Origin: Candidatus Saccharimonadota bacterium
GTDB taxonomy: Bacteria > Patescibacteriota > Gracilibacteria > UBA4473
Assembly (NCBI GenBank): GCA_963677105.1
Contig: OY781871.1
Location: forward strand, 360,001 to 392,000
Direction: 5' to 3'
DNA: 32,000 bases
The notes beneath the pieces are model-generated. The model was given only the letters and a program-made list of their open reading frames with translations, was not told the DNA's origin and ran no database searches. This document shows positions 6,867-18,176 of the stretch, piece by piece. Position 1 is the first letter of the stretch. Each line of letters begins with the position of its first letter. Position numbers and translations under genes: made by a program.

Positions 6867-6916
6867 GCACGAGTGGCGAAGAGTAGACCTGCCTGCCGGC
6901 AGGCAGGCGCGCTTAG
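6867..6916 (+). pseudogene. Degenerate duplicate of the 5' half of tRNA-Leu (acceptor 5' strand, D-arm, start of anticodon stem), interrupted by a 20-bp palindrome
   Basis: GCACGAGTGGCGAAGAGTAGAC[20-bp palindrome]CGCGCTTAG compares with the intact tRNA GCACGAGTGGCGAAACGGTAGACGCGCTAGC at 7194-7224. The conserved D-loop GG is lost and there is no 3' half. Confidence 0.75.
6888..6907. repeat. Perfect 20-bp GC-rich palindrome CCTGCCTGCCGGCAGGCAGG
   Basis: Exact self-complementarity. Inserted between GTAGA and CGC of the tRNA-like fragment. Strikingly GC-rich for this AT-rich spacer. Confidence 0.9.
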
Positions 6917-6955: not shown

Positions 6956-7228
6956 ATGTTCTATGTGTATGTCTTAAAGAGTAAAAATCGAAATTATATT
7001 TATGTTGGTTTAACTTCCAATATTGAGCGGCGTGTAAATCAACACAATTCGTTGAAAGAAAAAACTACTCGATCATATGCACCCTTTACATTAATTCATT
7101 CTGAAACTTTTAAAACTCGTCCAGAAGCTCGTAAAAGAGAAATATTCTTCAAATCTGGATGTGGAAAAGAATGGATAAAGAAACAATTTATCAGCACGAG
7201 TGGCGAAACGGTAGACGCGCTAGCTTGA
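6956..7228 (+). CDS. GIY-YIG (URI-domain) nuclease family protein, YhbQ/COG2827-like
   Basis: MFYVYVLKS..NYIYVGLTSNIERRVNQHN...K.RPEARKREIFFKSG matches the GIY-x10-YVG, R, and E signature of small stand-alone GIY-YIG proteins. The last 11 codons and the TGA stop lie inside tRNA-Leu. The stop covers loop position 33 and anticodon positions 34-35. Confidence 0.8.
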   Translation: MFYVYVLKSKNRNYIYVGLTSNIERRVNQHNSLKEKTTRSYAPFTLIHSETFKTRPEARKREIFFKSGCGKEWIKKQFISTSGETVDALA

Positions 7229-11793: not shown

Positions 11794-13755
11794 ATGTCAG
11801 ATAAATTATCAAATTTTTTAGAAAAATCAGGACTTCTTCCTTCTGTTGGAGAACAGAAAAAGTCTTCTCCATCAGTAAATACTCAATCAAAAAAACCGAT
11901 ACCGAAATCCTCTTCCAGTTCTTCGAAACGAAATTTTGTAAAACGTCCAAGTAAAGTGATTCGACCAGCTCATCCAACACGATCTCTTCCTGTAAAAAGC
12001 GAGAAAAAAATGACTCCGACACAAGATGGAGGAAAACCTTTTGAACCACGAATCAAACCTCTAGATGTTACAAAACACATTCTGAATAACCGAAAAGTTC
12101 CTGCTGGATACGAACTTCGTGTCGTACCACTTGGAGGAATGGAACAAGTGGGACAAAATATGATGCTTGTCGAAACAAAAGAGGATATTGTCATAATTGA
12201 TATGGGATTAGAATTTCCTTCTGCTGAACATTTGGGAATTGATGTATTAATTCCGGACGTTTCATATTTGAAACAAAATAAAAAGAAAATTCGTGGAGTA
12301 ATTTTTACACACGGACATCTGGATCACATCGGTGGCGCACAATACATGATGCAAGATATTGGATTTCCACCAATGTACGGAACAAAACTTACTTGCGAAT
12401 TATTAAAAGCCAACAATGATAGTCCTGATGTAGTAAAAAATTACAAACTCTATGAAATAAATTCTACATCAAAAATAAAACTCGGAAAATTAGAAGCCGA
12501 ATTTTTTCATGTAAATCACTCAATCCCTGACGCAGTAGGAGTAGTTATTAACACTCCTTTAGGAGCTATTGTTAACTCTGGAGATTTCAAAATTGAACAT
12601 AATCCTTCTGATAATTCTCCTGCAAACTTGCGTCGAATCCAACAAATTGGTGATCGTGGAGTAATCTTGGCAATGATTGATTCTACAAACGTAGAACGCG
12701 ACGGAAATACTCAACCTGAAGCAGAAATTGAAGCTGAATTAACCAGTACTATTCGTGGAACAAACGGACGAATCGTAATCGCTACATTTGCTTCGAATAT
12801 CGGACGAATTGCTCGAATTGTCGAAGCTGCAGAAAAAGATGGGCGAACCGTTTTTATCTCTGGACGTTCTATGGATAGAAATTTAGCAATTGCTCGAAAA
12901 TTAAAGTATTTGAAATGTAAAGAAAAAACACTTCAAAGAATGTCTAAAGCTGCTGAATCAATGCCAGCAGATAAGGTTTTAATTCTTTCAACTGGATCAC
13001 AAGGAGAAGAACTTGCTGCACTTACGCGAATGGCAGCAGGCACTCATCGTGATATCAAACTAACTCCAAAAGACACCGTCATTTTCTCTAGTTCTCCAAT
13101 TCCAGGAAACGAAATTGCGATTGTTTCTGTGCTCAATAATTTAGCTGATCGCGGTGTAACAATGCTCGATAATAAAAAACTTGATAGTCATGTTTCTGGT
13201 CACGGTCATGCAGAAGAAGTAAAACTTATGACTTCTCTTCTTCGACCAAAATTCATTGCTCCAATTCATGGAGAATTGTACATGCGCCATCATCATAAAA
13301 ATTTAATTTGCAAAGATTTGAAATTACCAAAAAATCACGCCATTGTGATGAAAAATGGACAAGGAGTTGTACTTTCTGCGAAAGGAATGCGAGCAATGAC
13401 AAAAAATGAAATTCTTCCTCAGGCACCAGTTCTCATTGAAATGCGCGAGAAACTAAAAGAACATATCCTTGCTGATCGTCAGCTCATGGCTGATGGCGGA
13501 ACTATTTTGATTGGAATTTCACAACATGATGGAACAATTAAAAATATAACAATACGTTCTCGTGGATTCCGATATATGGGACAAAATCATGAAATTTTCA
13601 AAATTTTAGAGAAAGAAATGCGTACTGTTTTCACCCGAAACTTTGATTCGAGCCGTCCAATGAACGCTATCGAAGAGACACTTCGAAAATCTGCTGCTAA
13701 AATATTGTGGCAAAAATTTAAAAAAGATTCTCTGGTAGAAGTGATTGTGCTGTAA
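11794..13755 (+). CDS. rnj: Ribonuclease J (metallo-beta-lactamase/beta-CASP) with a basic low-complexity N-terminal extension
   Basis: LRVVPLGGMEQVGQNMMLVE, HGHLDHIGG (HxHxDH), beta-CASP and a C-terminal domain. The conserved core starts near residue 107. Residues 1-100 are K/S/P-rich, so an internal start (for example M73 at 12010) cannot be excluded. Confidence 0.9.
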   Translation: MSDKLSNFLEKSGLLPSVGEQKKSSPSVNTQSKKPIPKSSSSSSKRNFVKRPSKVIRPAHPTRSLPVKSEKKMTPTQDGGKPFEPRIKPLDVTKHILNNRKVPAGYELRVVPLGGMEQVGQNMMLVETKEDIVIIDMGLEFPSAEHLGIDVLIPDVSYLKQNKKKIRGVIFTHGHLDHIGGAQYMMQDIGFPPMYGTKLTCELLKANNDSPDVVKNYKLYEINSTSKIKLGKLEAEFFHVNHSIPDAVGVVINTPLGAIVNSGDFKIEHNPSDNSPANLRRIQQIGDRGVILAMIDSTNVERDGNTQPEAEIEAELTSTIRGTNGRIVIATFASNIGRIARIVEAAEKDGRTVFISGRSMDRNLAIARKLKYLKCKEKTLQRMSKAAESMPADKVLILSTGSQGEELAALTRMAAGTHRDIKLTPKDTVIFSSSPIPGNEIAIVSVLNNLADRGVTMLDNKKLDSHVSGHGHAEEVKLMTSLLRPKFIAPIHGELYMRHHHKNLICKDLKLPKNHAIVMKNGQGVVLSAKGMRAMTKNEILPQAPVLIEMREKLKEHILADRQLMADGGTILIGISQHDGTIKNITIRSRGFRYMGQNHEIFKILEKEMRTVFTRNFDSSRPMNAIEETLRKSAAKILWQKFKKDSLVEVIVL

Positions 13756-13765
13756 TCTCTAGATC

Positions 13766-14278
13766 ATGAATTTATTTATTCTCTCGCAAATTCTTGTCGG
13801 AATAGCTTTTTGTACAGATTTAATATCTTTTCAATTTAAAGAACGAAAAAAGGTTGTGTTATTTTTATGTCTTTCTTCTGCACTTATTTCCACTCATTAC
13901 TTTTTACTTGGAAGAAATACCGCTGGACTTCTTGTTTTTATTTCTATAATTCGTTTTATTACTTCTTATTTTTCAACACGAAAAATTTTAATGTTCAGTA
14001 TTATTGGATTAAATATTTTAGGATTCCTTCTCACATACTCTTCACCCCTTTCATTTATTATTCTTTTTGCGTTAATTTTAATAACAATTGGCGCTTTTCA
14101 AAAAGAAGATAAATCTCTCAGAAGGATCATTATGATGGGAACTTGTTTTGTTATAACATACGACATTCTTATTTTTAGTCCGATAGCAATTATATTAGAA
14201 ATATCATTTTTACTAAGTAACGTCATTGGATATTTTCGTTTTTATTACAAGAAAAAAAAGAAAGTCATTTATACATAA
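13766..14278 (+). CDS. YgjV-family inner membrane protein (5-6 TM)
   Basis: 170 aa and polytopic. The N-terminal pattern (Q.LVGIAF..DLISFQFKERKK....L..SALISTHYFLLG...AGLL..I...R) resembles the E. coli YgjV family (PF10688) as I recall it. The start is 10 nt after the rnj stop. Confidence 0.55.
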   Translation: MNLFILSQILVGIAFCTDLISFQFKERKKVVLFLCLSSALISTHYFLLGRNTAGLLVFISIIRFITSYFSTRKILMFSIIGLNILGFLLTYSSPLSFIILFALILITIGAFQKEDKSLRRIIMMGTCFVITYDILIFSPIAIILEISFLLSNVIGYFRFYYKKKKKVIYT

Positions 14279-14279
14279 A

Positions 14280-14345
14280 AAATCTATCGCAAAAGTACTC
14301 TAACAAAAATTTAAAAAAGATTCACTTGTAGAAGTTGTTGTAATA
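14280..14345 (+). pseudogene. Displaced, decayed copy of the last ~23 codons of rnj
   Basis: Translates KKSIAKVL*QKFKKDSLVEVVVI, versus the authentic rnj end RKSAAKILWQKFKKDSLVEVIVL* (13684-13755). By hand count, 52 of 72 aligned nt are identical, including an uninterrupted identical run CAAAAATTTAAAAAAGATT. The W codon is replaced by TAA. Confidence 0.75.
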
Positions 14346-14355
14346 AAAAATATTT

Positions 14356-14386
14356 AAAAGCCCCACATCAATGAGGGGCTTTTTTG
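14356..14386. terminator. Bidirectional rho-independent terminator between the rnj/ygjV-like unit and the convergent 93-aa gene
   Basis: AAAAGCCCC-acatcaatga-GGGGCTTTT, with a T-run on the plus strand and TTTT on the minus strand. Confidence 0.8.
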
Positions 14387-14413
14387 TTTCTGTTATGCTA
14401 TTACAAACTCTTT

Positions 14414-14695
14414 TTAGGAAGAATGTGTAGTAAATCTTCCTGATGGTGTAAGTAACTGCCCATTATTTGGATCTTCTGGTGTCGCAATTTTTACATTCTC
14501 AATACTCTGATTTAACCATGGACGAACTAAATAGGTCTTGTCGACGTCTAAATTCAAGTCCCCCGACAAAACATTCTCCACTTTTACGGCTAACTCCGCT
14601 GCCAATTCTTCTGCCAACTGTTGCCCTGTTAATTCTACTCCATCTCGTTTTTGAAATTCGGGATATTTTGAAAACCGATCCAATAGATTCACCAT
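14414..14695 (-). CDS. Hypothetical protein (93 aa) immediately downstream of 5S rRNA
   Basis: ATG ORF preceded by its own near-consensus promoter. No motif recognised. Confidence 0.5.
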   Translation of the reverse strand: MVNLLDRFSKYPEFQKRDGVELTGQQLAEELAAELAVKVENVLSGDLNLDVDKTYLVRPWLNQSIENVKIATPEDPNNGQLLTPSGRFTTHSS

Positions 14696-14720
14696 TTGAA
14701 AATATTTTTAAAGCAATGTC

Positions 14721-14748
14721 ATTATACATAAAAAACAAAAAAAGTCAA
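14721..14748 (-). promoter_or_regulatory. Sigma70-type promoter (TTGACT-16-TATAAT) for the 93-aa gene
   Basis: On the minus strand, TTGACT (14748-14743), 16-nt spacer, TATAAT (14726-14721). Confidence 0.65.
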
Positions 14749-14772
14749 TACTCTTCTCAAGTTATAAAAAAC

Positions 14773-14895
14773 TCTGTGTTGATGTCGACCTACTTTCCCA
14801 GGATAACTCCAAGTATCATCGGCGCTGAAAGGCTTAACTGCTGAGTTCGGGATGGTATCAGGTGTACCCCCTTCGCTACAAACATCAACACAGAG
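14773..14895 (-). rRNA. rrf: 5S ribosomal RNA (ends +/- 5 nt)
   Basis: The reverse complement reads ...GTAGCGAAGGGGGTACACCTGATACCATCCCGAACTCAGCAGTTAAGCCTTTCAGCGCCGATGATACTTGG...GGGAAAGTAGGTCGACATCAACA, collinear with bacterial 5S. The terminal helix is formed by CTCTGTGTTGATGT / ACATCAACACAGAG. Confidence 0.93.
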
Positions 14896-15009
14896 TTTTC
14901 TAATTCTAGAATATAACTCTGATACGTAACAAATTCCTAAGGTCATTCAAATGTTTCTGAAACATTTCCTCTAAATTGTTCACCGAACGATGAAACAAAT
15001 TACTTGAAA

Positions 15010-17900
<2,891 letters not shown>

Positions 17901-18176
17901 TTTCAAGATTTGTTTATCGTTCGGTAAACAAATTACAGAAAACATTCAGTAATTTTCTAAAACACTCAATCGAAATTGAATGCTATTAAAAGACATTTGA
18001 TTTGCGTTCACTATCTCTAAGGAAATAAAAATAGTAAACATTTACTCCAATCTCATTAAATTGCTTAATTGAGACTGAAATTGACTCCAATTTCAATTAG
18101 AAATTGGAATTTAGGAATCTGTTCGTGTCAAAGATCCTTGCCATATCGCATTCACAATGAGCGCGACAGCCGGGAG

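Follow-up and report, generated by a model that had tools for sequence, protein, structure and literature searches.

The stretch of DNA analysed here, referred to as the window, comprises 32,000 nucleotides (positions 360001–392000 of contig OY781871.1) of a Candidatus Saccharimonadota genome of the class Gracilibacteria, which consists of a single contig of 962 kb with 36.4% GC. Within the window, the 3' end of rnj, the gene of RNase J, could be found twice, once as the intact end of the gene and once as a decaying relic directly behind a ygjV-like gene located downstream of rnj. With a probability of roughly 0.55, this arrangement is explained by a one-off, recombinase-independent insertion of a 593-nt block that duplicated the rnj 3' end or replaced it from a very close relative. 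The locus alone is a modest insertion scar; the point of interest is the recurrence of such scars at rnj and recG across genera.

Duplication of the rnj tail around ygjV

Alignment placed the two tail copies at 13684–13752 (copy A) and 14277–14345 (copy B), offset by 593 nt, with copy B overlapping the ygjV stop codon by 2 nt. An earlier note, made from the sequence by eye, had located the last 24 rnj codons at 13684–13755, and these coordinates hold. Its second copy, given as 14280–14345, ended at the correct position, but the true start lies 3 nt earlier, at 14277. The repeat that it had counted by hand as about 72% identical over 72 nt is real; formal ungapped alignment gave 51 identical positions out of 69 (74%). 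The longest exact run shared by the copies, CAAAAATTTAAAAAAGATTC, was found at 13711–13730 and 14304–14323; it is uninterrupted, as had been described, with a length of 20 nt instead of 19 nt. In copy B, the Trp codon has become TAA (14301–14303), as the note had seen, and the stop codon has become AAA.

The significance of the repeat was evaluated by comparing the local alignment score with 2000 shuffles, and by a scan across the whole 32-kb window. The two copies scored 61, whereas the shuffled sequences had a mean of 18.4 (standard deviation (SD) 3.0) and a maximum of 33, and the second-best place for the tail match in the window scored 32. The concern that shuffled A-rich sequence might align equally well is thus removed. 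Chance similarity of A-rich sequence, or a template and variable repeat pair of a diversity-generating retroelement, has a negligible likelihood as an explanation. The sequence is indeed rich in A, and an open reading frame (ORF) whose 3' end is repeated further downstream recalls such a pair; however, the alignment z-score was about 16, the mismatches were not adenine-specific (11 of 36 A positions vs 8 of 36 non-A positions), and the genome contained no reverse transcriptase (RVT_1) match.

The relationship of the copies to each other and to orthologous tails was also compared. Copy B was closest to copy A (51/69), and its identity to the tails of seven other species was 44–49/69. Copy A matched the tails of other species at 49–56/69, and since B is a decaying pseudogene, its larger distance is ambiguous. 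At codon 7, Ile/Val was present in A and B alone, while all other tails had Leu or Met. When 72 aligned positions were counted by direction, with the stop-codon position included, the copies differed at 19, of which 11 were GC to AT and 4 were AT to GC on the B side; a relic that decays in an AT-rich genome should show such a bias. The closeness of the copies, the common Ile/Val and the AT-biased change suggest that A and B differed very little when the event took place. The distribution of the differences over the codon positions (6:3:9) is compatible with local duplication and with import alike, and the data would fit either a copy of the resident tail or a tail imported from a close relative.

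The empty site in related genomes

The order of rnj, a variable spacer, and the 5S and 23S rRNA genes on the opposite strand was kept in the window and in the related loci L115, L117, and L119. The spacer was unlike in each genus-level lineage compared, among which rnj is 81–85.5% identical. In L116 and L117 it was occupied by a minus-strand kinase-like gene, and in L119 by small ORFs. In L115, a terminator preceded ygjV, and in L120, ORF112 (minus strand) was followed by ygjV and the kinase gene. In L116 and L117 (rnj 82–83% identical), rnj is followed directly by a homologous hairpin, without ygjV. The same-genus genomes G001 and G002 lack ygjV, which was present in 9 of the 36 family genomes surveyed, and no tail duplicate was found at the other rnj loci of the genus.

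Behind copy B, a hairpin with a 9-bp GC-rich stem and flanking A and T runs (AAAAGCCCC...GGGGCTTTTTT) was predicted at −14.5 kcal/mol (z −3.2), while folding of the interval between rnj and ygjV revealed no hairpin. The hairpin behind copy B aligned with those located directly after rnj in L116 (z 6.3) and L117 (z 3.2). Because it is homologous to the hairpins that follow rnj in relatives without ygjV, copy B and the hairpin represent the ancestral rnj end still in place, while tail A, the linker, and ygjV represent the insertion. Two proposals of the earlier note gain support from this comparison, namely that ygjV was inserted together with a surrogate rnj end and that the terminator at 14356 once served rnj. 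The synteny comparison that it had suggested revealed the empty site in L116 and L117, so the duplicate and ygjV are not common to all relatives.

The interval between rnj and the 5S/23S genes (13756–14776 in the window, compared with L115, L116, L117, L119, L120, and L123) is also a hot spot at which the lineages differ in gene content, the occupants being ygjV, an AAA-kinase-like gene, ORF112, small ORFs, or an orphan ORF.

Evaluation of site-specific integration

The identical core had been interpreted in the earlier note as an att site, and the two copies as attL and attR, the products of site-specific integration. In such a model, ygjV and the surrogate rnj end would form a mini-cassette that was moved by a recombinase in trans, with the run of 19–20 nt as the att core. 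Several features look cassette-like, including the direct repeats that flank one gene, the repeat end at the stop codon of that gene, the empty sites in relatives, and the compact junctions, at which the relic (hereafter psi tail) abuts the stop codon of the cargo gene. In addition, an exact run of at least 20 nt would be unlikely if the 18 mismatches were evenly spread (P = 0.013).

However, the C-terminal sequence ...WQKFKKDSLVEV.. is common to all 12 genus-level RNase J proteins, with an invariant WQKFKKDS motif that the core encodes, and the orthologous rnj tails of different species exhibit exact runs of 14–26 nt at the same position (L116/L120, 26 nt; L117/G002, 23 nt; A/L117, 18 nt). 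As orthologous tails without integration have similar runs, the 20-nt run represents ordinary conservation in AT-rich codons. The sequences to the left (16/27) and right (15/22) of the run were similarly diverged. No recombinase was found in or beside the 593-nt unit, which contains ygjV only, in agreement with the earlier note. The search for integrases in trans that it had proposed identified one tyrosine recombinase gene at 685.8 kb and one serine recombinase gene at 347.9 kb of the genome; both exist but are located far from rnj (371.8 kb).

Screening of approximately 87 other ygjV loci revealed no rnj-tail copy downstream of ygjV, and matches to the tail were limited to the genuine rnj ends of L115, L120, and L121. 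Flanking repeats were absent from approximately 70 other ygjV loci, while one further case was found later in genome G019. The length of the repeat at rnj was 63–69 nt in the window compared to 32–41 nt in G021, and at recG it was 67, 48, and 17 nt in three genomes; since independent tail duplications at the same genes differ in length, there is no fixed crossover point. Over all the scar cases described below, the repeats ranged from 17 to 105 nt and the target sequences were unrelated. Taken together, these observations make the att-based model highly improbable, and the reading of the core as an att site cannot be maintained. An integron cassette was also rejected, as the attC boxes RYYYAAC and GTTRRRY were missing on both strands of 14260–14400.

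A related model without a dedicated enzyme is Campbell-type integration, in which a small circle carrying ygjV and an arm of the rnj tail would enter by a single RecA-dependent crossover within the tail, as a homology-targeted cassette. The resulting topology is identical to the one observed, and both the repeat ending at the rnj stop and the psi tail abutting the cargo stop would be accounted for; moreover, RecA-type recombination needs about 20 nt of identity, which the tails offer. Nevertheless, this model is improbable, because it does not account for the source of the circle, neither free copies nor further integrated ones were found (87 other ygjV loci), and the left halves of A and B are no more alike than the right halves, unlike what a recent crossover in the core would leave.

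Origin of ygjV

The nearest YgjV homologues were 64–75% identical and occurred in several gene contexts. The order yceG–ygjV–Cys-rich gene was found in G021, L111, and L113, and the order Cys-rich gene–ygjV–kinase–5S in L123, while ygjV was located downstream of rnj in L115 and L120, as in the window. The three rnj-linked YgjVs shared just 64–66% mutual identity and were closer (70–73%) to YgjVs from other contexts. The YgjV tree was star-like and weakly informative. A single clade of the rnj-linked YgjVs (window, L115, and L120/P0006, together with P0005, an unplaced close homologue) was rejected with a p value of 0.0225, while a clade of the window and L115 was not rejected in the approximately unbiased (AU) test (p 0.24). 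Judging from these relationships, exchange of ygjV within the family appears likely, with vertical descent and relocation as the alternative.

The GC content of ygjV (26.1%) was the lowest among 727 ORFs of at least 150 amino acids (aa) (genome mean 36.7, SD 2.9), and its GC at third codon positions was at the 7th percentile. The low GC was considered as evidence of a foreign gene but is not decisive, since the composition of a hydrophobic membrane protein accounts for it in part. Of the two comparisons proposed in the earlier note, composition thus set ygjV apart as the gene with the lowest GC, but the star-like phylogeny does not decide on a foreign origin. In L125, located on a contig of GCA_029935835.1, the gene of a close YgjV homologue (64%) has its start at the stop codon of a TraG/VirD4-like coupling-protein gene of a type IV secretion system; this context hints that ygjV may ride on conjugative DNA.

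The presence of ygjV downstream of rnj in two more genus-level lineages (L115 and L120) also raises the possibility of local tandem duplication followed by loss, without any foreign DNA. In an L115-like ancestor, the segment from the rnj tail to ygjV would have been doubled, after which deletions removed the first terminator with the spacer as well as the second ygjV. Such a history predicts the preserved adjacency of copy B and the terminator, as seen; it agrees with the clade of the window and L115 that was not rejected, and with initially identical copies, as indicated by A and B being mutually nearest and by the AT bias on the B side. However, three events are required, no remnant of the second ygjV, the kinase gene, or ORF112 could be found downstream, and the rnj-linked YgjVs are less alike than they are to those from other contexts, in line with the rejection of their joint clade. 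The recG–uppS scar described below would also stay unexplained, as the genus relatives lack uppS and G002 has an empty site. Duplication and loss is accordingly given an appreciable but minor chance.

Recurrence of the scar at recG and in other genomes

A screen for tail duplicates was conducted by comparing the last 93 nt of each ORF of at least 100 aa with the 2.5 kb downstream. Among the 1149 ORFs of the genome, two genuine cases were identified, rnj and recG; the search for further duplicated ends of upstream genes, as suggested by the earlier note, was thus successful in revealing recG–uppS. The recG relic is 67 nt long, directly follows the uppS stop codon, and corresponds to the last 22 codons of recG, with 58 identical positions, one indel, and one internal stop. 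The cargo, uppS (PF01255), keeps its native end (...NFGK and stop). Both G001 and G002 lack uppS, and the site in G002 is empty; there, recG is followed by a terminator and, at a distance of 219 nt, by the downstream gene that both genomes share. The closest uppS homologues (64–67%) adjoin a pseudouridine synthase gene, not recG. Convergent to uppS, a pair of genes encoding a DUF4411 (PIN-like) protein and an IrrE/M78 peptidase could be observed at 614517–616246 of the contig (L127 518–2247, plus strand). The recG relic forms the entire spacer between uppS and this pair, which is missing from the corresponding place in G002.

Other genomes of the family carried further scars (Table 1). G008 and G007 had them at recG and G021 had one at rnj; in G019, the scar surrounds a broken ygjV. 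The cargo ORFs of G008 and G021 had no match in Pfam, PHROGs, or the PDB. The repeat in G019 ends at the stop of an opposite-strand gene that is homologous to the cargo of G008. This homologue of the 127-aa cargo is located at L011 728–1364 (plus strand) beside the broken ygjV, and the repeat is its 3' end. A repeat end was located within about 0–5 nt of a stop codon in each of the six cases, and wherever the cargo is co-oriented (three cases), the relic starts at the cargo stop.

The frequency of the scar was compared with two control sets. None of 360 ORF tails in loci of other phyla had such a scar. The first 400 kb of G015 had no case at a housekeeping gene and contained only an Rhs toxin/immunity array (L164, G015:C1:264600–268400), which consists of Rhs-type toxin C-termini and immunity genes with repeated module ends and represents a known kind of 3'-end displacement. 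In a post hoc comparison, the scar was enriched at recG (2/26) and rnj (1/28) in other family genomes relative to 2/1149 ORFs genome-wide. Selection for an intact host gene and read-through into a promoterless cargo explain part of these regularities.

The window also contains a repeat at a tRNA gene, the other locus to which the earlier note had pointed. Copies of the 5' end of tRNA-Leu (GCACGAGTGGCGAA..GTAGAC) are present at 6867–6888 and 7194–7216, 327 nt apart. They flank a 90-aa GIY-YIG ORF at 6956–7228 (plus strand; PF01541, E 7e-17), which overlaps the start of the tRNA gene.

Proposed course of the insertion

According to the preferred explanation, a 593-nt block consisting of a copy of the last approximately 22 rnj codons and stop, a 10-nt linker, and ygjV would have entered approximately 22 codons before the end of rnj. 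The gene would have been kept intact by the new tail A, and ygjV, without a terminator in front of it, would be read through from rnj; the two genes are probably co-transcribed. The original tail B and the rnj terminator would have been left behind ygjV, where B presumably decays under AT-biased mutation. Neither a site-specific recombinase nor an att core would be needed. The block may derive from DNA of a relative that was taken up and recombined homologously on one side and illegitimately on the other, or it may have arisen by template switching or insertion at a staggered break. Only those events that spared the essential gene would have survived selection. Uptake of DNA is plausible because ComEC and DprA are present in the genome, and L115 and L120, with their rnj-linked ygjV, are possible donors or ancestors.

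Several observations weigh against this explanation. A sliding-window comparison along rnj and recG revealed no recombination breakpoint in either gene; therefore, a foreign 3' segment is not demonstrated. A donor in which recG and uppS are adjacent was not found, and the closest uppS homologues are not beside recG. The precision at stop codons is not explained by simple illegitimate recombination, which predicts neither repeat ends 0–5 nt from a stop in six of six cases nor a psi tail starting exactly at the cargo stop in three of three co-oriented cases. The repeat, only 69 nt long, also gives little power to tell initially identical copies A and B from copies of different lineages. At the right junctions, A-rich microhomology is possible, though not diagnostic.

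A tentative proposal, which is considered unlikely, is that this Gracilibacteria-class family of the candidate phyla radiation (CPR) undergoes recurrent single-gene insertion at the 3' ends of conserved genes, with rnj and recG among them, driven by an enzyme or by break sites and always duplicating the host tail to the stop. The driver of such a route might be a nuclease in trans, for example the GIY-YIG protein by tRNA-Leu, or breaks at terminator hairpins. No sign of a dedicated integrase was seen across the scar cases.

With the one-off insertion as the preferred explanation, the locus demonstrates how the streamlined genome of approximately 1 Mb of an ultra-small bacterium gains a gene in an operon end while an essential gene is kept. 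The psi tail is a datable scar of the insertion event. The recurrence at rnj and recG in several genera, with tails bounded by stop codons, suggests strong selective filtering or an undescribed CPR insertion route. If the pattern is general, psi tails could be utilized as a simple marker of gene gain in uncultured lineages.

Features of the locus

Among genus-level RNase J proteins, those of L115, L120, and G002 were 84–85.5% identical to that of the window. YgjV matched PF10688 over its full length (positions 1–158 of 159, E 8e-36, 123.7 bits, gathering cut-off 23.5), and ygjV is the sole copy in the genome. The 93-aa ORF downstream of the terminator had no Pfam, PHROG, or PDB match and no homologue in 42 family genomes. 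The 5S/23S genes (14777–17903) form the conserved right border of the variable interval between rnj and the rRNA genes.

Table 1. Features of the rnj–ygjV locus and of the other tail-duplication scars (window positions unless indicated otherwise)
Feature	Position	Strand	Remarks
rnj (RNase J, 653 aa), intact, ending in tail copy A	11794–13755	+	Pfam RNase_J_b_CASP, Lactamase_B, RNase_J_C
Tail copy A, functional last 23 codons and stop of rnj	13684–13755	+	homology to copy B spans 13686–13752
20-nt exact run, encoding QKFKKDS	13711–13730	+	same as 14304–14323
10-nt linker from rnj stop to ygjV start	13756–13765	+	without terminator
ygjV-like inner-membrane protein gene, 170 aa, cargo of the insertion	13766–14278	+	PF10688
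Tail copy B, displaced decaying original rnj end	14277–14348	+	TAA at 14301–14303; terminal stop now AAA
Bidirectional intrinsic-terminator hairpin, ancestral for rnj, now serving rnj–ygjV	14356–14385	+	predicted fold
Orphan 93-aa ORF between terminator and 5S rRNA gene	14414–14695	−	possibly no gene
5S rRNA gene	14777–14889	−	Rfam
23S rRNA gene	15005–17903	−	Rfam
recG	617054–619108 of contig	−	uppS 85 nt after it; scar spans 616248–619108 (L127 2248–5109)
G008 (L143), recG scar	127-aa ORF at +117 to +500 after recG stop		recG, 116 nt, ORF, 48-nt recG-tail relic from ORF stop codon
G007 (L142), recG scar			17-nt exact repeat of recG end around 140-nt hairpin-rich insert
G021 (L025), rnj scar			32–41-nt rnj-tail relic behind antisense 82-aa Cys-rich ORF
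G019 (L011), ygjV scar			105-nt repeat (93 identical) around broken, frameshifted ygjV

Comparison with known systems

Integrative elements that insert at the 3' end of a tRNA, tmRNA, or protein gene bring a substitute for that end with them, which results in attL/attR direct repeats. The locus shares with them the repeats extending from an internal point to the gene end, the restored gene, the displaced old end, and the empty sites in relatives. In contrast, it has no integrase, its unit of 0.6 kb carries one cargo, the repeats are diverged, and there is no fixed crossover point. By these defining traits, rnj–ygjV does not fit an integrative element.

In Rhs, CdiA, and type VI secretion system (T6SS) effector loci, 3'-end displacement leaves orphan modules (e.g. 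PMC5361080). Likewise, a new 3' end arrives there together with a companion gene and the old 3' end is pushed downstream. However, those loci involve polymorphic toxin domains under diversifying selection, whereas the tail is conserved here and the companion is no immunity gene.

Homology-facilitated illegitimate recombination during natural transformation or conjugation (PMC3240628) introduces foreign DNA next to an anchor gene that is conserved; one junction is homologous and the other is based on microhomology, and duplication of recipient sequence is possible. ComEC and DprA are present in the genome analysed here, and possible donors that combine anchor and cargo are available for rnj (L115 and L120), but not for recG–uppS. 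The differences are that no breakpoint was detected in rnj and that exact stop-codon junctions are not predicted by this process.

The locus is not firmly assignable to homology-facilitated recombination, to displacement of the Rhs/T6SS kind, or to the gene hybrids produced by mobile ORFs in fungal mitochondria, the last of which are its closest known parallel. Hybrids with a duplicated C-terminus were described for atp6 of Allomyces macrogynus (Paquin, Laforest and Lang 1994, as reported in PMC3630166), and mobile-ORF hybrids are also present in atp6, atp9, cox2, and nad3 of Glomus (Beaudet et al. 2013, PMC3630166). The order of parts is the same in the fungal hybrids and at rnj–ygjV, with the host gene body, an in-frame inserted C-terminus, the inserted ORF, and the displaced native C-terminus; the host gene stays intact, and relatives have an empty site. 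In the fungal hybrids, however, the ORF is a homing endonuclease that drives mobility, whereas the cargo here is YgjV (UppS in the second case), without an adjacent endonuclease; the GIY-YIG ORF nearest to the insertion (6956–7228) is 6.5 kb away. Furthermore, the inserted C-terminus is clearly foreign in the fungal hybrids, while tail A looks no more foreign than relic B. If a recurrent insertion route does exist in this CPR family, it may represent the bacterial equivalent, without an endonuclease, of the mitochondrial mobile ORF and its duplicated C-terminus.

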